Assembly: GCA_036785375.1 (NCBI GenBank)
Contig: JAWMAR010000200.1
Coordinates: forward strand, 1,612,001 to 1,676,000
Reading direction: 5' to 3'
From: Leucoraja ocellata
Taxonomy: Eukaryota
Length of the DNA: 64,000 bases
Shown here: positions 3,818 to 38,315 of the stretch, piece after piece
Layout: every line of letters starts with the position of its first letter
How positions within the stretch are numbered: position 1 is the stretch's first letter
Made by a program: the position numbers and the translations under genes
Notes under the pieces: generated by a model
What the model was told of the DNA's origin: nothing
What the model saw: the letters and a program-made list of their open reading frames with translations, nothing else
The model's database searches: none

Positions 3818-4098
3818 AGTATAGCACAGGAACAGGCCCTTCAGCTCACAATGTCCGTGATGGACACGAGGTCAAGTTGAACTAATGTAATCCCATCTGC
3901 CTGCCCGTGATCCATATCCTTCCATTCCCTGCATATCCATGAGCCTATCTAAAAGCCTCTTAAATGGCACTATTGTATCTGCCTGCACCTGAATCATGTT
4001 CAAGGCACTACCCTGCTCATTTTCTTTAAACTTTGCCCCTCTCATCTTAAACCTATGCTCTCTAGTCTTGACATTTCCACCCGAGGGAAAAAGGTTCT
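3818..4098 (-). mobile_element. CR1/HER1-type LINE 3' end
   Basis: Translates to NLFP..KTREHRFKMRGAKFK...FKRLLDRLMDMQGMEGYG (CR1 ORF2 C-terminus), plus 3' tail. Confidence 0.85.
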
Positions 4099-4488
4099 CA
4101 AATTTTTGGGTCATGATTTGTGATTTCTGTAAGGGTGGATTTCCTTTACCCGAATGGCTGTGACATGGAGGTTGCCTGAAGACTTTAATTAAATGGATAT
4201 GAAAAGCATGGCTCGATGCCGGGAGCAGTGAGAGAAAGAATGACACCATCTCTATTTTCAATGCTCTCCTTTTCCATCTGTCAGCCACTAATTTCTGGTT
4301 CGTGTTTCGGCTGCCTGTAAGACGCCACATTTTGTTGGAGGGATTCTTGTCCATCCCAAATGGTAACATGCACGTTCTAGCCTCTTGTACCCTGGAGGAA
4401 TGAGAAATGTCAAAATATTTGGAGCTAGAATTGCATTAATGCAAGCAGCTTGACAGATAGTGTTGTATGATAGCCGCCTCCCCAACAG

Positions 4489-5052
4489 TGTGTCTCGTCC
4501 TTTTCTTCTTTTGTTGTTTATAGTATGTTGTTAAATGTATGTTTTGGTGTATCTTAGTTTTGCATTATGTGGGGGGGAAACTTTTTTCATCTCTTTCCTC
4601 GACGGAGATGCAACTTTTCCATATCGTATCCCCGTCCTTGCAGCCTAACATCGAGGAGCTGGCTTTGGGAGCTTCAACCACGGGAGCCTGCGGACTTAAT
4701 ATCGTGGTGCTCGCGGTCCCTTGGTTAGGGATCGACTTCGGGAGCTCCAACCGCAGGAGCTTCGATCGCCCCAACGTGGGAACTTCGATCGCCCTGTCGC
4801 GGGAGCTTTGATCGCCCGACTGCGGATGGTTCAACTGCCCCGACTGCGGATGGTTCAACTGCCCCGACCGCGGGAGAAAAGGAGGGAAGAAGAGAATATG
4901 TTATTGCCTTCCATCACAGTGGATGTTTCAATTAATTTTTATGGAGATGTGTGCCCTGTTGCTTTTTTGGTATGACTGTATGGCAAATCAAATTCCTTGT
5001 ATGTTTTTACATGCTTGGCTAATAAATTAATTACAATACAATACAGTACAAT
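4489..5052 (+). mobile_element. Non-autonomous GC-rich element with Rex1-type 3' tail
   Basis: T-rich leader, G-run+GAAACTT, hairpin 4601-4636, 24-bp tandem repeats at ~4815-4870; tail aaattccttgtatg...cttggctaataaa(tacaa)n resembles the Rex1 tail at ~21105-21145. Confidence 0.65.
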
Positions 5053-5174
5053 ATGATATTTTTCTGTTGCTATATTAGATATTATTATTTTCTTGGAAAC
5101 ATGATGAAATGATTTCAATCATTGACATGTGTTTCCAGAAACAATATAAATGGTTTGGCAGCAAGCAATTAGAA

Positions 5175-5490
5175 GGCAAATTGTATGTTGACCTATATTG
5201 CAGGAGGATTTCAATGAAGGGTCGAGAAGACTGGCTCCAGCTATGTATGGCCCTGGTAAGGCTATTATGTACAGGTCTGGCCTCTTTCGCTAAAGGAGGA
5301 TATACTTGTGATAGAGGCAGTACAATGAAAGTTCACCCGATCGATTTCTGTGATGTCAGGTTTGTCTGATGAATGGAGATTAATCAGACACGGGATTTTT
5401 TTTTTTTGATTTTGGAAGAATAAAAGTGATCGGATTGAAATGTGCAAAATTGCTGGGATGTCCAGAACCAGGCATTACAGTCTGAAGATA
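5175..5490 (+). pseudogene. Degenerate CR1-type ORF2 fragment
   Basis: LQLCMALVR / tattgtacaggtctgg (YCVQ.W-like) / tccagaaccaggcattacagtctg (SRTRGHSL-like). Confidence 0.65.
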
Positions 5491-6007
5491 CTTTAGATGG
5501 TAATGGGAGCACTGAAATTGCCAAGATAGAGCCTCAGGAAGGTTTTTAGGATCTGTACTTGAAATGTGATTACGTGAAAAAACTGGTTACTGAAATTGAA
5601 ACCAAGTTATCAGACCAAATTTGACTGCTTGAATAGCTGAATTTTGTCTGTGAATGGGGAAAGTAGAGAGAGTAGTTTTTCTTCAAGGCGTTCATTCTGA
5701 ATCAACACTTATGCTCTTAAAGACAATTATCCAAGCCAAGCACACTCTTGCCTGAGAACTGGTATGATCAAATAACTTGCAAATGGAAAATAAAACCATT
5801 AAGATCATAAAAAGATAATGTCATAAAACTAGAATTGTTTCCAAACAAACAATATGTGAGGAATGTAGAATAAAAAAACTAATAGAGTGGCAAAAACACT
5901 TTGAATTGAATATCAGAAGAGGTTACATTTAGGTAAAAAAAAAATCAGTGCAAAATATAGAAGAAATAAAGTGCTGAATTTATAGAACTTGCAAAATTTA
6001 AATTATT

Positions 6008-6225
6008 CAAAGAAGGAACTGCAGATGCTGGATTACAACAATAGACACAAAGTGTTGGAGTAACTCAGCTTCTCTGGAGAGAGTGTCATTTTGGCTCGGG
6101 ATCCTTCTGCAGACTTCACTTGTGGTGGGTTGGGGGAGAAAGCTGAAAGAGAGGTGGGGTCAGAACAAAGTCTGGCAAGTGATAGGTCGACACAGGCACA
6201 GTGAAGAAGGGGAAGTGGGGGGAAG
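6008..6225 (-). mobile_element. Penelope-derived repeat
   Basis: aaggaactgcagatgctgg...gacacaaagtgttggagtaactcag, with a degenerate hammerhead core. Confidence 0.65.
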
Positions 6226-6621
6226 TAGTGATTGTTACATTTTTCGTAAATAACACACAAACAATCTCCCTTCACCCCCCCACCCCCCAATTTTTCCCCC
6301 TCTTTTCCCAGTGGGATGGAAAATTTGGCCACTGTTTAGGAACATCTTTTATATAGTGTACTAATTCGTGAACAGGAGCCAGAAGTCAAATGTGCAGATG
6401 ATACAGGGCTAAAGAACATGCTGAACCATAAATTCAAATGGATATCACATGAGCTCACAAGGAAATATGAGTAGTCTAATGGCAGATACAATTCAGCTGA
6501 GAGGAAATGCAAAAAAGCTACATCTGCCGACTAGGGGACAGTTTGATAATTCCATATATTACAATTGAAAGATTGGGGATATTCTGATTTGCATTAAATT
6601 GAAGCTTTCTTGGTGATCCTT

Positions 6622-8790
6622 ATAATAATAATATATTTTATTGTCATTGCACATCAGTGCAACGAGATTTAGTATGTAGCTTCCAACCGATGTAAAAGAA
6701 AAGTAAAATAAATAAATAAGCTGTGTGACGTGACCATCCGAGGGAGACAGTCCATGGGGGTGGGGGGCACTCAGCAGGGCCGGTTCAGAGCCGCTATAGC
6801 TCTGGGAATAAAGCTGAGTCTGGAGGTTCGGGCGTAGAAGGTCTTGTAACGTCTGCCGGAGGGAAGTAGTTCAAACAGTCCGTTACAGGGGTGTGAGGAG
6901 TCTTTATGGATGCTGACGGCCTTCCTGAGGCACCGTGTGTGGTAGATGCCCTCCAAGGCTGGTAGCTGTGTCCCAATGATCCTCTGTGCTCTGTGGACGA
7001 CGCGCTGAAGAGCTCTCCTCTCCGCCTCAGTGCAGCTGAGATACCACACAGAGATGCCATACGTTAATATGCTCTCTGTGGTGCAGCGGTAGAAGGTTGT
7101 CAGCAGCTGTTGGGGCAGATCAGTCTTTTTTAATGTCCTCAGGAAGAACAGTCGTTGCTGTGCCTTCTTGACCAGCGCAGCGGTGTTGGTGGACCATGTG
7201 AGGTCCTCTGAAATGTGAGTGCCCAGAAACGTAAAGCTGGACACTCTCTCCACACTTTCCCCGTAAATGGAGATTGGGGCATATTCTCCATTATGGGACC
7301 TCCTGAAGTCAATAATCAGCTCCTTGGTCTTGGAGGTGTTTAGTGACAAGTTGTTACATGTGCACCAGTCCGCCAGGTTCTGCACCTCCGCTCTGTATTT
7401 TGTTTCATCACCGTTGGTGATCAGCCCAATCACTGTTGTGTTGTCTGCAAACTTCACGATGGTGTTGGTGTTGAATGCAGGAACACAGTCGTGAGTGAAG
7501 AGGGAGTAGAGCATGGGGCTTAGTACACAGCCCTGTGGTGTGCCGGTGCTCAGGTTGATAGTGGAGGACAGGTGCGGGCCCAGTCTCACTGCCTGCGGTC
7601 GCTCCGTCAGAAAGTTCAGGATCCAATCGCATATCGGCGAGCTGAGGCCTAGCTGGTGGAGTCTGGTGGTGAGCTTGGTGGGGATGACCGTATTGAATGC
7701 AGAACTATTGTATATGTAGAGATCTTCACATATGTGCCCAGTCTGTCCAGGTGAGTCAGGACAGTGTGAAGAGCCAGAGAGATGGCATCCTCTGTTGATC
7801 TATTTGCCCTGTATGCAAATTGATGAGAGTCCAGTGAGGCAGGGATGCTGGATTTGATATGGGAGAGGACCAGCCTTTCGAAGCACTTCATTGGGATTGG
7901 AGTTAGGGAACTGGGCGGTTGGTGACTTTAGACTTTTTCGGCACCGGCACTATGGTGGCTGTTTTCAGGCACTTGGGGACCGTTGCCAGAGATAGGGATT
8001 GATTGAAGATTCTCGTGAATACCTCCGCCAGCTGTACAGCACAGTCCTTTAGTACCCTTCCCTGGACTCCATCCGGGCCTGCAGCCCTGCGTAGATTAAT
8101 CCTACGCAGAGCGCACTGTACCTCCTGAGTGCTCAGTGTTAAGGCCTGTCCCTCCGCCATGGCCCGGGTTATTCTACTCCTGGTGGTGTTGCCAGTTTCG
8201 AAGCGGGCAAAGAAGGTGTTTAGTTCGTTGGCCAGTGTGATATCACCGTGGGGGCAGGCGGGGCTGCTCTTGTAGTCAGTGATGTCCCTGACACCCTGCC
8301 ACATGCTACTGGTGTCCACGGTATTGAAGTGGTCTTCCACCCTTTGCCTGTGGATGTCTTTGGCCTTTTTTATGCCTTTGTTCAGGTTCGACCTGGCCGC
8401 ACTGTAGGCAGAAGTGTCCCTGGATTTAAAGGCATTGTTGCGTGCCCTTAGCAGATTCTGAACCTCCTTGTTCATCCAGGGTTTCTGGTTTGGGAACATC
8501 TTTATTTGCTTGTCCACTGTGACAGTCTCCACACAGCAGTTGATGTAGGAGAGCACAGTGGATGTGTACTCCTCCAAGTCTACCTCTGTACCACTGGTTG
8601 CCTGTTGTGCAAACAGGTCCCAGTCGGTGCGATCAAAGCAGTCCTGGAGTTGTAGGGTGGCGTCCTCGGGCCAAATTTTGACCGTCCTTATTACAGGTTT
8701 GGTCTTGCGGATGAGGGGTTTGTATGCAGGCAGTAGAAACAGTGAGAGGTGATCAGATTGTCCCAAGGATGGGCAGGGGAGAGCTCTTAG
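6622..8790 (-). pseudogene. Rex1/Babar-clade non-LTR retrotransposon, 5' truncated, frameshifted ORF2 (EN C-terminus, RT, C-terminal domain)
   Basis: ORFs 7903-8808, 7649-7891 and 6771-7589 give [76 protein letters not shown]; 3' stem-loop + AATAAA + (TTA)n tail at ~6622-6665. Confidence 0.93.
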
Positions 8791-9387
8791 TGGCAATGGG
8801 TAAAGCAAATTAGATACGGGGCCACATTAAAGATTAAGTAATCATCCAAAATGGTGAAATAGTCTTGTTACTGTTACTTTATAAATCTTGAAAGGATAGA
8901 GAAGAGAACATGTGTGATGGAGGAAATGGAGAGGTTTGAATATGAGAACAGTTGTAAAAATTGATGAAGAGATGATGTAGTTGTCTTTAAATACTCAAGG
9001 ATGAGTTATTGCAGGCAATTACAGGTTTTTTCATCTTGCGCAAAATATTGGATTGAAGATACTGATTGCACGCGAAAGGGAAATAAATTAGGGTAAATCA
9101 TTTTTAAATCAGTGAACCCAGGTCACCGGAAAGTTTGTGGCATTAATCTCTTTTGATTCATTGAAATTAAACAGGTCTTTTAGAAACAAATTTTCAGGAT
9201 ATTGTAACAATGAGGTATGATTGGTGTACACTGCATGGCTGGAACTAGCAAGTGACCTAGGACATAACATTCCCTAAGTCGGGGTGAGGTGCTGGGATTG
9301 TTTCATGTTATACCCATGTCAAATGTAGTTCAGTTCAGTTTAATTTATTGACACGTGTACCGAGGCACAGTGAAAAGTATTTGTTCT

Positions 9388-9535
9388 ATATCTCTCTACA
9401 GCATCGTCTCCATCTCTCGTTTCTCTTTCCCGGGAGTTTCAGTCTGAAGAAGGGTCTTGATCCGAAACGTCACCCATTCCTTCTCCCCAGAGATGCTGCA
9501 TGTCCCACTGAGTTACTCCAGCTTTTTGTGTCTAT
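9388..9535 (+). mobile_element. Penelope-derived short element
   Basis: Same sequence as the 3' region of the Penelope copy at 34393-34600, on the opposite strand. Confidence 0.75.
9441..9475 (+). ncRNA. Minimal type I hammerhead ribozyme-like motif (intact core)
   Basis: agt-CTGAAGA-a-gggtc-tt-gatcc-GAAAC-GTC-accc: CUGANGA, stem II, GAAA, NUH triplet. Confidence 0.6.
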
Positions 9536-10304
9536 TTGCAGAAAGCCAATACATGATTACAATCGTGCCATTTACAGTGATACACGATAAGGGAATAGTG
9601 TTTAGTGCAAGGTAAAGCCAGCTAATGTAGACTAGTTGATCAATTCACTGTTATGATTAGTTACAATTCTAGCTTTGTATCAAACGATTATCAGAATGGC
9701 AAAATGCTCCAGTTCAAATTTTCCAGTGAGTCAGCAGTTTGTGAGAATGTATTTGTGGAAGCCAAATTAAAACAGTTTTCATTAAAATTCATTGACATAT
9801 AAATTAAGGATTTTAAACTCCAGCTTTTTGTATGGATTGGTTTATGTCAAAACAATACATTGCTGAAGTTGACAACCAGGTTCGAGCTATAATGTAAAAT
9901 CTCATTAAAACAGTAATTGGTGTGTATGTAGCATAGAAATTAAGTACATACAATTTTCAGTTTATTAAACTAGTTAGCAAAATTAATATAAAATTGAATA
10001 AAATTTAACGTGTGTGGCATTACAGTCTATGGTCATTAGTAAGTCGGCACAGGCATGTTCGGCTCATGTTGTGGGCTGAAGGGCCTATTGTACTGTACTG
10101 TTCTATGTTCTGCATTCTATTAACCATCTCTGCATTTCCCATCAGAAATATTTCTGCTGAACCTGTTTGTGCCCATTCATTTTCAAATGCTGTTTTTCTT
10201 GGTTTTATTCGCCTCTTGTTTGGGTTCTTCTGTCCTCTACATAAACTGTTCTTTTGGCACGCCAGGCATTCGAAGTCAAGCTGAAATATTTTGCTGCATT
10301 TGTT

Positions 10305-16524: not shown

Positions 16525-16957
16525 CCTACTGATGTGCATGCAACTGGATTTCTGCTGAGGATATCCCACATACACACTTATCAACATTTCCCCCCCACTC
16601 CACTCTTCTGTTTAAGGTGACCTTGTGTCTCTGTTCCTGTAGTTAATCAACCGCTAATGATTCATGGCCACATACCCAAAGTCACAGATTATAATTGTGG
16701 CCTCATTTAATAAAGGACAACTTGTCCTACTTCTTTTTCCATAAAGTTTGTCACTCTTGGTATTGTTCTCCTTGACAATGAAGTATCACAATTTAAGATT
16801 CTTGCACGTTTTCCCAAAAGGAGTTGATAAAATATTAATTTAATTGGTCTGTTTTTATATCAGAGCACATATATTGAGTCTAATAGATGTTTCAAATACA
16901 AAACATAACTAAGCTTTAGTGTCAAGGAAAGGGAACAAGCAACATTTATTTACCTAA

Positions 16958-17068
16958 GGTACACAAAAAAGCTGGAGAACCTCAGCGGGTGCAACAGCAT
17001 CTATGGAACGCAGGAAATAGGCAACGTTTCGGGCCGAAACCCTTCTTCAGACTTTTTTCTTCCTTCTT
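16958..17068 (-). mobile_element. 111-bp Penelope-derived hammerhead element with 15-bp TSD
   Basis: CATTTATTTACCTAA at 16943-16957 and 17069-17083. Confidence 0.85.
17020..17053 (-). ncRNA. Minimal hammerhead ribozyme-like motif
   Basis: Minus strand agt-CTGAAGA-a-gggtt-tc-ggccc-GAAAC-GTT-gcc. Confidence 0.55.
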
Positions 17069-17584
17069 CATTTATTTACCTAATCTCAGCCATTCAAAAC
17101 TATCTCACACCCTTTGTGTGGGGAGATTTGGCCTTGGTTCTTTTCATCGGATGTCTAACTTGGCTCTTCCTCCTTGCTTGCGATCTCCTGTGGTTAAAGG
17201 AAAATGAGAATGGAAGCACAGAAAGGTTAAACAGAAGGTTGCTGTTGAAGGCTCCAGAATGATGCATAACGTGATGCATGTGTGTTTCTGGGCTTATTGT
17301 CTTGAGGATGTTCTGTTATTGCAAAAGTAATTTGTAGTGATTGAATTAAATGGGTCAGATGTTGTTTGTGCATTTATGTTCTACTTGCTGAATTAGAATG
17401 AACATCTTTGTGATTCCTAAACCATTTTCCCTTCACAAATATTTCCTGAACAATCTTTCAAAAAGATAGAGATTTGAGAAAGATGAGAATAATTAGTATA
17501 TTATTCTCCAGCTATATTTTTAAGCTATGCTGTGATATAACTGGACAGTCACAGGTTTAAAAGTATGACATTCAGAGAAACATA

Positions 17585-20417: not shown

Positions 20418-21178
20418 AATTGATAGTAGACTTTTGGAGAACTCCCCCTCCCCTCCCCCCACTCACTATCAACAACACCACAGTCACATCTTTGGCGTAT
20501 TTTAAGTTCCTTGGAACCATCATCTCCAAGGACCTGAAATGGGGTGCCACCATCGACTCCACAGTCAAATGGCCCAACAGAGGATGTACTTCCTGCGGCA
20601 GCTGAGGAAACACAATCTGCCGCAGGCAATAATGGTCCAATTCTATACTGCCATCGTAGAGTCTGGCCTCACCTTCTCCATCATGGTCTGGTTTGGCTCA
20701 GCCACCAAGCACGACATCCGGAGGCTGCAGCGAATCGTCCCATCAGCTGAGATGGTTGTTGGCTGCAACCTTCCCCTCATTGACGAACTGTACACTGCAA
20801 GGGCCAGGAAACGAGCGGGTAAGATCATCTCTGACCCCTCTCACCCTGGCCACAAAATCTTTGAAGCACTTCCCTCTGGAAGGCGACTTCGTACTGTCAG
20901 AGGCGCCAGAGCCAGACATAAAAACAGCTTTTGTTTTCCACGGGTAGTAGCTCTACTCAATAACCAAAAGTCTGTAGCCTCCTTTTGCTCTGGGATTTTA
21001 TTTCATTCACATGTCTAAACTGTAATGTTTTATTATTAATGTTTAATGTGTCATTCTTAATTGTTACTGTATGTTGTGTTGCTACTCATGAGCGGTGCAC
21101 CAAGGCAAATTCCTTGTGTATATATATATATACTTGGCCAATAAACTTATTCATTCATTAATTAATTAATTCATTCAG
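20418..21178 (+). pseudogene. Rex1/Babar LINE 3' fragment (second family)
   Basis: LIVDF..FKFLGTIISKDLKW, frameshift, AQQRMYFLRQL..DPSHPGH..LPSGRRLR; tail ttggccaataaa(cttatt/catt)n. Confidence 0.9.
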
Positions 21179-21779: not shown

Positions 21780-23633
21780 CGTTCACGGAGGGCGGCCCGC
21801 AGAGGTGACAGAGGAACCTCCGGTCGGTCCTGGAAGAAAGGGGAACTAAATCCCCATCCATAAAAGAGAAGGTGAGGGTATATTGTGCGGGAGGGTTAAT
21901 AATTGACAATATGCTGCTGTCTGGGAGCTGCGGGCAGGGAGCTGCAGATTGTCGCTCCCTTCAGTTTCACCCCACCTACACCCCTCTGCTTCCCGGCCAT
22001 GTGTGTGACCCCTTCCCTCCCCTCTCCAGCTCCCCGCCCATTGCACCGACGTGGGGGCTTTGCACTGTCTTCACGTCGGCAATGCCAGTCACCGGAGACG
22101 TCAGGACCAACGGGACACCGACCCCCAGGCCCACTGCAAGCACGGAGATCCCAGATCAGCAACTCCAGCCGAGCCCCGCTCCAACTCCAGAGGGGCAGAA
22201 ACTGATGGTGCGCAAGGTGCGTCTTGTTCTTGAGGTCGCGCAACTCGGGCTGTGGGCGAACTGCCACTTGTCGCCGTAGCGGCCCATCGGGGAGCGGATT
22301 CCTCTGGAGTTGGGGGTGGGGGGGAGGGGGAGGGGGGGTATTGTGCTGTTTGATCGCCCCCTGCTATCCCAGGAACAGGGAAACAGGACGTTCACTGAGG
22401 GCGGCCCGCAGAGGTGACAGCGGAACCTCCGGTCGGTCCTCGACGAAAGGGGAACTAAATCCCCATCCATAAAAGAGAAGGTGAGGGTACATTGACCGGG
22501 AGAGTACGAATCCCAAGACAAAGTTGAGTGAGCGTTCACCGAGGGTGGCCCGCAGAGGTAACAGCGGAACCTCAGGTCGGTCCTGGAAGAAAGGGGAACT
22601 AAATCCCCATCCATAAAAGAGAAGGTGAGGGTATATTGCGCGGGAGGGTTAATAATTGACAATATGCTGCTGTCTGCCCGCTGAGTTAAAAAAATTCCCA
22701 CGGTAGACTCACGATACACAGTGTATCGTGAGTCTTGCGTGGGAACTTTTTTCTCAGCGGGCAGGGAGCTGCAGATTGTCGCTCCCTTCAGTTTCACCCC
22801 ACCTACACCCCTCTGCTTCCCGGCCATGTGTGTGACCCCTTCCCTCCCCTCTCCAGCTCCCCGCCCATTGCACCGGCGTGGGGGCTTTGCACTGTCTTCA
22901 CGTCGGCAATGCCAGTCACCGGAGACGTCAGGACCAACGGGACACCGGCCCCCAGGCCCACTGCAAGCACGGAGATCCCAGAGACCCACAGCCAGCAGCA
23001 GCCCAGCCCCGTTCCAACTCCAGAGGAAAACTGCAAACTAGCGGGAGACATCGGGACCACCAGAAGCCGTTCCTCGATGGGCCGCTACGGCGACAAGTGG
23101 CAGTTCGCCCACAGCCCGAGCTGTGCCCCCTCATCGGGACACCGACCCCCAGGCCCACTGCAAGCACGGAGATCCCAGATCAGCAACTCCAGCCCAGCCC
23201 CACTCCAACTCCAGAGGGGCAGAAACTGATGGTGCGCAAGGTGCGTCTTGTTCTCGGGCTGTGAGCGAACTGCCACTTGTCGCCGTAGCGGCCCATCGGG
23301 GAGCGGATTCCTCTGGAGTTGGGGGTGGGGGGGAGGGGGAGGGGGGTATTGTGCTGTTTGATCGCCCCCTGCTATCCTAGGGACAGGGAGACAGGACGTT
23401 CACCGAGGGCGGCCCGCAGAGGTGACAGCGGAACCTCCGGTCGGTCCTCGACGAAAGGGGAACTAAATCCCCATTCATAAAAGAGAAGGTGAGGGTACAT
23501 TGACCGGGAGAGTAGGAATCCCAAGACAAAGTTGAGTGAGCGTTCACCGAGGGTGGCCCGCAGAGGTGACAGCGGAACCTCGGATCGGTCCTGGAAGAAA
23601 GGGGAACTAAAAAGAGAAGTGGAGGGTATATTG
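21780..23633 (+). repeat. Internal repeats of the TIR element: ~105-bp unit x5 within a larger duplicated block
   Basis: cgttcac.gaggg.ggcccgcagaggt...ggggaactaaa starts at 21780, 22389, 22533, 23397 and 23541. Confidence 0.9.
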
Positions 23634-28514: not shown

Positions 28515-29265
28515 GATTAGATTAGATTAGATTAGATTAGATTAGATTCGTTTATTGTCATTCAGACCTTTCAGTCTGAACGAAATTTTGTTTCCCTGCA
28601 GTCATACATATAATTTAAAAAATGACAAAAACACACAATCAACACAAATTTAACAGAGGGAGAACAAAGAGGGAAGAGACAGAGAACTTAAGATTTTGCC
28701 TTCCACCACAGTGAGGAGGTGTTTGGTGAACTCACTGTGGTGGAAGGCAAAATCTTAAGTTCTCTGTCTCTTCCCTCTTTGTTCTCCCTCTGCGCCGAGG
28801 CGACGGCTCAAACTCCGCGGGTGGTCGCTGCCTCCGCCACAGCTCCAGGACCGAGTCGGGTCTCCGCTGCTGCTGCTGCTGCCGCCGCCGCCGCCACAGC
28901 TCCATGGCCGAGCCGGGTCCCCGATGCTGCTGCCGCCGCTACAGCTTCGGGGCCGAGTCGGGTCTCCGCCGCTGCTGCTGCCGCCGCCACAGCTCCAGGA
29001 CCGAGTCGGGCCTCCGCCGCTGCTGCCACAGCTCCGATGCCGCCAGCTCCGCCATTAGGCCTCGGCGCAGACGGAGACGGGGATGGGGAATACAACCGAA
29101 GAAAAAGTCGCATCCCCCGAAGGAAGAGACCAAAGCAAGTTTCTCCCACCCCACCCACACACATATACAACTTAATAAAACAAAATTAACTAAAACATGA
29201 CAAGGAACAAAAGAAAAAAAACAGACGGACTGCAGGTGGGCCACAGCTGTTAAGCCAGCGCCACC
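28515..29265 (-). mobile_element. Non-autonomous GC-rich Rex1-tailed element with internal GCC/GCT minisatellite and a 62-bp perfect inverted repeat
   Basis: (TCTAA)n tail, atttcgttcagactgaaaggtctgaatgacaataaa, 5' hairpin at 29085-29118. Confidence 0.7.
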
Positions 29266-34392: not shown

Positions 34393-34995
34393 TAGGTAGA
34401 CACAAAATGCTTGAGTAACTCAGCAGGACAGGCAGCATCTCTGGAGCGAAGGAATGGGTGATGTTTTGGTTTGAAACCCTTCTTCAGCCTGATGTCAGGG
34501 GAGTGTGCAGTACAGAGATAGAATGTAGTCGGAGACAGTAAGACTGGTGGGAGAACTGGGAAGGGGGAGGGGATGGAGAGAGAGGGAAAGCAAGGGCTAT
34601 TTGAAGTTAGAGAAGTCAATGTTTATACCGCTGGGGTGTAAGCTACCCAAGTGAAATATGAGGTGCTGTTCCTCCAATTTGCACTGGGCCACACTCTGAC
34701 AATGGAGGAGGCCCAGGTCAGATTGGGAATGGGAGGGGAAGTTAAAGTGCTGAGCAGTAGGTTAAGGCGGACTGAGCAGAGGTGTTCAGCGAAACAATCG
34801 CCGAGCCTGTGCTTGGTCTCGCCGATGTACAGGAGTTGACACCTGGAACAGCGGATACAGTAGATGAGGTTGGAAGAGTTGCAAGTGAATCTCTGCCTCA
34901 CCTGAAAAGACTGTTGGGGTCCTTAGATGGAGTCGAGTAGGGAGGTAAAGGGACAGGTGTTGTGTTCACTTGCACCTCCTCCAACCTCATCTACT
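34393..34995 (-). pseudogene. Penelope-like element 3' part: GIY-YIG endonuclease end, 3' UTR and hammerhead repeat
   Basis: FTCNSSNLIYCIRCSRCQLLYIGETKHRLGDCFAEHL (GIY-YIG with CxxC); hammerhead-like core at ~34457-34488; short inverted copy of FTCTSSNLIY at ~34964-34995. Confidence 0.88.
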
Positions 34996-37969: not shown

Positions 37970-38315
37970 TCGCAGGGCTAATGGAATCAAGAGATATGGT
38001 GAGAAAGCAGGAAACGGGGTACTGATTTTGGATGTACACAAAAAAGCTGGAGAAACTCAGCGGGTGCAGCAGCATCTATGGAGCGAAGAAAATAGGCAAC
38101 GTTTCGGCCCGAAACGTTGCCTATTTCCTTCGCTCCATAGATGCTGCTGCACCCGCTGAGTTTCTCCAGCTTTTTTGTGTACCTTCGATTCTCCAGCATC
38201 TGCAATTCCTTCTTAAATACTGATTTTGGATGATTAGTCACCATCATATTGAATGGGGGTGCTGGCTTGAAGGGCCGAATGTCCTACTCCTGCACCTATT
38301 TTCTATGTTTCTATT
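37970..38315 (+). mobile_element. CR1-type 3' tail split by a palindromic insertion
   Basis: GIKRYGEKAG..tactgattttggatg|..atcatattgaatgg..ttctatgtttctat. Confidence 0.8.
38035..38217. mobile_element. Palindromic Penelope-derived element with 15-bp TSD
   Basis: ~74-bp arms (38034-38182, one mismatch); TACTGATTTTGGATG at 38020-38034 and 38218-38232. Confidence 0.88.

Follow-up and report, generated by a model that had tools for sequence, protein, structure and literature searches.

Hammerhead-bearing micro-insertions in Leucoraja ocellata are very probably 3' stubs of a Penelope-like element, and the ends of their sister copies likely record how it is copied

The window analysed here is a stretch of 64,000 nucleotides of the Leucoraja ocellata genome (assembly GCA_036785375.1, contig JAWMAR010000200.1, positions 1,612,001 to 1,676,000 of the forward strand). 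It contains a 111-bp insert on the minus strand which, in line with the original prediction, is bounded by an exact 15-bp direct repeat (16943-16957 and 17069-17083). In the numbering used below, C3 of the hammerhead core is position 0 of the element and the predicted cut lies 5' of +28. The insert and its borders comprise the following features:

16943 to 16957, plus strand: target-site duplication of 15 bp on the side of the element's 3' end, an exact repeat of 17069-17083.
16958 to 17022, minus strand: post-hammerhead part of the pseudo-LTR of a Penelope-like element (PLE), ending at the 'short' reverse transcriptase (RT) start about +93 from C3; the identical sequence terminates long ORF-bearing copies, and 3' ends are bimodal.
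17021 to 17052, minus strand: predicted minimal type I hammerhead motif, read from the sequence against the minimal hammerhead description in PMC4209133.
17052 to 17068, minus strand: 5' filler of two tail scraps (reverse-complement match to the tail), likely a collapsed second arm.
17069 to 17083, plus strand: target-site duplication on the side of the element's 5' end, an exact repeat of 16943-16957.

On the minus strand, the insert reads CTGAAGA-A-GGGT[TTCG]GCCC-GAAAC-GTT, with C3 at 17050, followed by a tail of ~65 nt. The motif consists of a 2-bp helix I, CUGAAGA, an extra A, a 4-bp stem II with a UUCG loop, GAAAC-GUU and a palindromic ACGU, and its predicted cut falls between 17023 and 17022. 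The insert is a monomer with a single hammerhead and no tandem unit. It had been described as little more than a hammerhead core and a tail, which holds for the core and the ~65 nt behind it, but not for the first 17 nt of the insert, which are not hammerhead sequence. This leader of 17-18 nt ahead of the core is made up of two scraps (9 and 7 nt) that match the reverse complement of the element's own tail, and similar joins occur at four other loci (L007, L013, L015 and L022); by its sequence, the leader likely represents the collapsed second arm of a two-armed insertion.

An Rfam scan of the window returned no hammerhead family match at E≤10, and its miRNA-type matches were the inverted repeats. 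The call of a predicted ribozyme is therefore a reading of the motif against the published minimal descriptor. Like the motifs described in PMC4209133, the focal motif has an extra base between positions 9 and 10.1, a G10.1-C11.1 pair, a palindromic 15.2/16.2 and no real helix III, and its 2-bp helix I is as in D. virilis; unlike the stems of 6-8 bp given in that account, its stem II spans 4 bp. Reading the window's ORF list by eye revealed no host exon.

A second copy of the focal locus (L002) showed 98% identity over 3.1 kb. A search for an empty site lacking the insert gave none, and contigs of two other data sets enter the insert from both flanks, so the focal insert is shared. The focal insert and its L002 counterpart differ at five positions within 111 bp, compared with ~1.8% over the 3.1 kb, and L002 is nearer to the subfamily majority; the excess could be due to gene conversion or CpG decay.

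About 15 relatives had been proposed for the window, and the motif was indeed present within 30 nt of all 12 listed positions. The number itself was an undercount, as profile searches gave 34 matches at E<0.01. Among the 12 positions, only the one at 9444 had an intact core by the descriptor. Three window copies illustrate the range of forms:

9439 to 9539, plus strand: subfamily B stub, the sole other window copy with a core intact by the descriptor (profile and descriptor).
34395 to 34995, minus strand: PLE copy from a related subfamily, longer but 5'-truncated, with a broken GIY-YIG end, pyrimidine-rich 3'UTR, decayed hammerhead and tail.
38020 to 38232, both strands: head-to-head two-arm insertion of the focal subfamily, with a 15-bp duplication (38020-38034 and 38218-38232).

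The second of these carries its decayed hammerhead at C3 34487, with the GIY-YIG remnant upstream, and thus agrees with the original statement that the motif lies directly 3' of a GIY-YIG remnant at 34393-34995. In the third, the two arms are joined in stem II, and one ends short and the other long.

Genomic copies tie the insert to its parent element. Four of 30 close relatives (L008, L025, L029 and L030) extend upstream into a pyrimidine-rich UTR and the end of a GIY-YIG ORF, and in a 1.46-Mb sample the motif lies within ~310 nt after 38 of 54 ORF-end matches. Core and tail of the focal subfamily terminate all 20 long ORF-bearing copies fetched, which bears out the suggested link to Penelope. 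Two of these 20 copies have uninterrupted frames (1077 and 1078 aa); the 1077-aa frame matched RVT_1 (E 5e-6) and GIY-YIG (E 0.0085), both below the curated Pfam cut-offs, with the motifs visible in the translation, and a 185-aa piece of the ORF gave no Pfam match. In long copies, a single ORF with RT and C-terminal GIY-YIG, as in EN+ PLEs, lies upstream of the focal sequence, and the optional 30-40-bp tail, mostly at one end, and inverted 5' copies are found as well. One full-length copy (L172) is arranged as UTR-hammerhead-tail-ATG-RT/GIY-YIG ORF-UTR-hammerhead, with the ATG ~165 nt after C3, so that the same repeat stands before and after the ORF, as in a pseudo-LTR.

Going by the linker motif alone (CNRKRCNTC in L171, CNHKRCNTC in L172), the element would be of the Neptune/Nematis type, whose mark according to PMC8557442 is a CX2-5CxxC linker between RT and EN. 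It shares with the EN+ PLEs of that account (Craig et al. 2021) the order RT then GIY-YIG, a CX4CxxC linker and pLTRs, as well as frequent 5' truncation, inverted 5' copies and a one-ended 30-40-bp tail. In the L171 and L172 ORFs, unlike the PLEs as described there, a long stretch that is rich in Pro, contains repeats and varies in length separates the conserved N-terminus from the RT; it is reminiscent of low-complexity inserts in rotifer PLE ORFs.

Because the focal core and tail are found at the ends of long PLE copies, the insert represents the terminal part of a PLE pseudo-LTR. On these comparisons, we consider it very probable that the insert is a 3' stub of an EN+ PLE carrying a predicted minimal hammerhead, a class described in 2014, when solo and opposite-strand minimal hammerheads from truncated PLEs were reported (Cervera and de la Pena, PMC4209133). 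As there, most copies here are single motifs from truncated PLEs, and close opposite-strand pairs occur.

Copy number was assessed in 1.46 Mb that had not been picked for the element, namely 1.4 Mb inside 15 dynein heavy-chain genes plus the window. The genome comprises 3.44 Gb and most dynein genes are listed twice, so that counts include haplotype duplicates. From 653 matches, 457 arms remained after removal of 113 tandem matches and of those too short or near gaps; a first genome search was excluded from the counts, as its query was biased toward A-rich 5' joins. The sample held ~270 events per Mb, with duplications of 13-15 bp, in agreement with the prediction of very abundant, independently inserted elements; if extrapolated, this amounts to several hundred thousand PLE stubs genome-wide. 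The 31-nt focal core had 25,986 exact genome matches, for one subfamily and with genes often present twice in the assembly, compared with 4,000-9,000 given for coelacanth and Xenopus in PMC4209133. The first 25 nt of the core had 38,840 exact matches, at least 14,531 of which also carried the upstream UTR 10-mer. The duplicated dynein genes are sometimes inverted on the same contig (C123 and C410; for the focal locus, C200), and their twofold presence suggests retained haplotypes.

The 3' ends of the 457 arms are bimodal, at ~+93 and ~+130, about 35 nt apart. A direct repeat of at least 9 bp surrounded 116 of them, compared with 18-35 in five foreign-upstream controls (inverted insertions count twice), confirming that relatives have their own target-site duplications. 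Among the longer repeats, duplications have a mode of 13-15 bp for inserts from ~90 to >500 bp alike, and neither the two 3' ends nor the 13-15-bp duplications distinguish stubs from long or inverted copies. Of 68 head-to-head pairs, 52 combined a short with a long end, 11 two short ends and five involved an intermediate end, whereas long-plus-long pairs were absent (7.7 expected); among young pairs, 23 of 25 were short plus long. This asymmetry is the known PLE tail, which is usually present at one end only (PMC8557442, PMC3846280); in vitro, the RT starts internally on either side of this tail, and the two strands are each cut and extended (PMC11167929). The Poseidon element of Anolis studied there (PAc; Frangieh et al. 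2024) likewise has its hammerhead at the pLTR/ORF junction, two internal RT starts bounding the tail, extension of both strands and use of uncut RNA. It differs in that its ATG lies at stem II rather than ~165 nt downstream of C3, and the genomic pairs, unlike the in vitro data, allow one start site to be assigned to each arm of the same insertion.

The 5' ends are also non-random and show subfamily structure, as had been suggested, with a pile-up at the hammerhead edge that the available part of PMC4209133 does not describe. For the 264 arms reaching C3, the adjoining upstream sequence is unique flank in 116 cases, an inverted arm in 52 and UTR or shared sequence in 96; UTR-like pyrimidine content was seen in just one of the 116 unique-flank arms. 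Among 271 solo arms, the stop rate per nucleotide was 0.069 at -8 to +3, compared with 0.008 within the element and 0.0055 across the UTR, making a stop at the hammerhead 5' edge about ten times more frequent than elsewhere, and ~60% of core-reaching copies end within ~8 nt upstream of the core. Loose ends at 0 to -2 also occur in the contigs of the two other data sets. At the predicted cut, no spike of 5' ends was found in the 1.46-Mb sample, nor when the first 100 of 2,564 genome matches were inspected by eye, leaving out ~15 variant or ambiguous rows (~6 events at +28 compared with 3-6 each at +25 to +30). The stub templates were therefore mostly uncut, in agreement with PMC11167929, which found no RNA ends at the hammerhead cut.

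A rarer class of copies is circularly permuted. The join of tail to ORF start had 159 exact genome matches, and most of the 52 examined are short permuted units rather than full elements. Their sequence continues to ~+185 to +300 and there connects back to a point X further upstream; the templates overrun the tail by 60-170 nt of ORF-start sequence. A targeted pattern for such copies gave 107 matches, including arrays of 3-5 units; units are ~170-315 bp long and occur in up to five copies. The same junction is repeated within one insertion at L202 (inside a 14-bp duplication), L215, L226 and L241, and is found in both arms at L197, L213, L214 and L242. As the junction recurs within one insertion, the RT must have passed from the RNA 5' end to the 3' end more than once, either on an RNA circle or by repeated end-to-end jumps. 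Since each permuted array has its own junction, such arrays arise repeatedly and have not spread as a family; later unequal exchange could have lengthened them. Permuted pLTR/ORF-start units with locus-specific junctions were also noted at L248-L254 and L269-L272.

Mapping of X by script gave 37 rows, from which one duplicate and one indirect join were removed, with three near-edge rows discounted as mis-extended; 13 of the ~35 distinct junctions have X within -5 to +5. Among ten junctions between +6 and +41 (four mapped by script and six by eye, among the matches listed, with 7 not listed and about a dozen lying beyond the letters shown), six fall at +27 to +31, beside the predicted cut at +28 (P ~0.001, for a window picked post hoc). 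This excess hints at cleavage in vivo; a pause at the hairpin foot would yield a similar pattern. In PMC4209133, cut-and-ligate circles were proposed as the origin of PLE tandems. The more-than-unit copies found here compare with that model, yet most junctions lie away from the cut.

The original prediction had interpreted the inserts as a retrozyme-like system dependent on Penelope. A retrozyme in this sense would be non-autonomous, cleave itself, form a circle at the hammerhead cut and rely on PLE enzymes for reinsertion. Long duplications, a huge copy number and a core conserved across subfamilies B, C and D would fit, as would the rare tandem permuted class and its junctions near the cut. 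Non-LTR retrozymes (Cervera and de la Pena 2020, PMC7229834; Li, Clavereau and Pollet 2026, preprint) are described as sharing the type I hammerhead, the relation to PLEs and the long duplications, and where the core is included the permuted arrays would have the tandem arrangement that the preprint requires. In contrast to such elements, the focal insert is a monomer with a minimal instead of a canonical motif and with ends off the cut; at least two tandem hammerhead units were found only in rare arrays elsewhere. Most copies, too, are monomers whose start lies ahead of the core and whose end is a PLE priming site, rather than running from cut to cut, so their templates were not bounded by hammerhead cuts; the 5' ends of the dispersed copies covered pile up before the core, with no spike at +28. 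Stub sequence is the same as that of the ends of autonomous copies. Each of the four scored subfamilies is also present on copies continuing into the PLE 3'UTR, leaving no lineage separate from the autonomous copies, and the one-junction-per-array pattern speaks against a spreading family. No circular-RNA joint was seen among the matches listed in short-read RNA libraries. Although non-random 5' ends are also expected from a discrete non-autonomous element, the retrozyme reading is largely refuted for the stubs, and we consider it very improbable for the insert. In the preprint (bioRxiv 10.64898/2026.07.22.740005), retrozymes are reported for one chondrichthyan, and repeats related to the present ones might be listed in its tables.

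The edge sequence is TCAGTCT, and a C-rich tract, a competing hairpin and a TCAG-T-CTGA palindrome coincide there; its TCAGT we take to be initiator-like. The sharp pile-up together with this TCAGT would also fit short SINE-like master genes with an internal promoter at the hammerhead edge that are copied in trans. Precedents for parts of this scheme exist in Drosophila, where PLE promoters are internal to the pLTR (PMC2377424), and in a rotifer, where pLTR sequence reportedly sufficed for trans mobilisation (PMC3846280). Against such masters, short, long and inverted copies occur side by side in each of the four scored subfamilies, stubs share no private 5' sequence (116 of the 264 arms have unique upstream flanks), and the permuted templates run past the tail into ORF-start sequence that is absent from stubs; we regard this scheme, too, as highly unlikely. 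Least credible is a splicing origin of the pile-up, with the pyrimidine-rich, CAG-terminated UTR as intron and the exon starting at the hammerhead, as in Drosophila Penelope, because in spite of the polypyrimidine-like UTR with its CAG, GT-type donors that closely follow the ORF of some subfamilies and a D. virilis intron ending at the helix I 5' end (PMC4209133), the predicted spliced junction had no genomic copy (one donor, exact match), stubs have no common upstream exon, and many retain AGT, CAGT or TCAGT.

With the insert read as a PLE stub, the pile-up at the edge calls for a stop in copying. Most likely among the candidates, though short of an even chance, the stop would reflect a common RNA 5' end with transcription starting at the initiator-like TCAGT; a structural or C-rich stall would be a less probable cause, and other causes are rather unlikely. 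Many copies and junctions reach upstream through the UTR, so that not all templates begin at the edge, which counts against the start-site reading. RNA-seq showed no pile-up of molecule starts or ends at the 5' pLTR/ORF start, in libraries poorly suited to show one, and none of the data sets listed as holding this sequence is recorded as RNA. Since 86-97% of raw RNA reads continue into unrelated sequence, passive stubs swamp the RNA signal. Some stubs may have been transcribed from host promoters and then recopied.

Taken as a mechanism, the element's endonuclease and RT would likely have written the last ~95 bases of a PLE from uncut element RNA into the focal site, with the cDNA halting prematurely upon reaching the 5' border of the predicted hammerhead. 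We infer a staggered cut after which both DNA ends would prime inside the RNA, one per site, as for the anole PLE in vitro, for which the RT was described to prime internally at two sites, both strands to be cleaved and extended, and uncut RNA to serve as substrate (PMC11167929). Each cDNA would grow toward the RNA 5' end and terminate there or where the enzyme stalls, and microhomology would then join the arms, the second arm of the focal insert having presumably collapsed to 16 nt. The hammerhead would be a passenger, kept in master elements, decaying in stubs and nearly silent as a monomer.

The ends of sister copies thus likely record how a Penelope element copies itself. A fuller version, which we put forward tentatively and as possible rather than probable, takes them as a fossil record of the Penelope cycle: strong-stop cDNAs would run from two priming sites to the RNA 5' end at the hammerhead edge, pLTR-ORF RNA fragments would be circularised or jumped and recopied, repeatedly seeding arrays, and a minority of templates would start at the cut. 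If so, the templates starting at the cut would be genomic evidence of in vivo cleavage by a PLE minimal hammerhead. The permuted copies also suggest that retrozyme-like arrays can form directly from PLE RNA.

The majority sequences of subfamilies B, C and D retain every core base (CUGANGA, GAAA, NUH) and stem II. Differences are confined to loop II, H17 (U/C) and one pair each in stem II and helix I (U-G/U-A in both), with no two-sided covariation among the three; this retention would fit selection on masters. Within subfamilies, mismatch in core and tail was 0.015 vs 0.055, 0.050 vs 0.062 and 0.059 vs 0.113, which is not a clean test, as only copies that reach the core had been selected and several sub-subfamilies are pooled in the tails. 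In a folding prediction for a copy with one stem II change, the hammerhead (-2.6 kcal/mol) is less stable than the minimum-energy structure (-8.4 kcal/mol). Small PLE hammerheads reportedly cleave as dimers, according to a 2017 paper. Comparable motifs are described as having no activity as monomers and low activity as dimers (PMC4209133), and one as needing the element's protein (PMC11167929).

The original prediction that stubs scatter harmful cleavage sites through introns found no support. Intragenic status was defined by same-strand dynein Pfam matches on both sides, not by gene models. Within the dynein genes (1.4 Mb), most cores are decayed and 48 of 435 arms retain an intact one. At modest power, there was no sense depletion of solo arms (141 sense vs 115 antisense) or of intact cores (28 vs 20), and short stubs showed the opposite of depletion (61 vs 40, p=0.046). 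Two control repeats, whose strand labels are nominal, behaved differently: the first showed a strand bias (98 vs 140), the second did not (84 vs 71). Intronic stubs show no sign of harm to host RNA.

The focal insert itself is ordinary, and its value lies in the natural experiment on PLE copying to which it belongs. The copy ends bear on the regeneration of pseudo-LTRs and tandems and on the in vivo role of the PLE hammerhead, questions raised in PMC2377424, and they supply testable numbers: one start site per arm, a roughly tenfold edge stop, more-than-unit copies inside one duplication and a possible junction excess at the cut. In the openly accessible literature searched, we found no account of the focal family, the 5' pile-up or the permuted junctions, nor of one short and one long start in inverted insertions, the one-sided tail itself being known.

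Several further repeats were noted. Dispersed short arrays of a 66-bp unit that spans from GAAAC to the tail and lacks CUGANGA occur in both orientations in the dynein stretches, 12 in C249 and two in C281 (L071-L079 and L147-L152); they are a ribozyme-less, pLTR-derived minisatellite that appears to be moving or expanding locally. In the window, non-LTR retrotransposon RT fragments with long open frames lie at 6771-8826 (minus strand) and 20506-21018 (plus strand), and GC-rich tandem repeats with units of ~144-197 bp at 22156-23620. A long near-perfect inverted repeat at 28652-28794, unrelated to the PLE and with weak miRNA-model scores, adjoins GC-rich repeats at 28834-29000.
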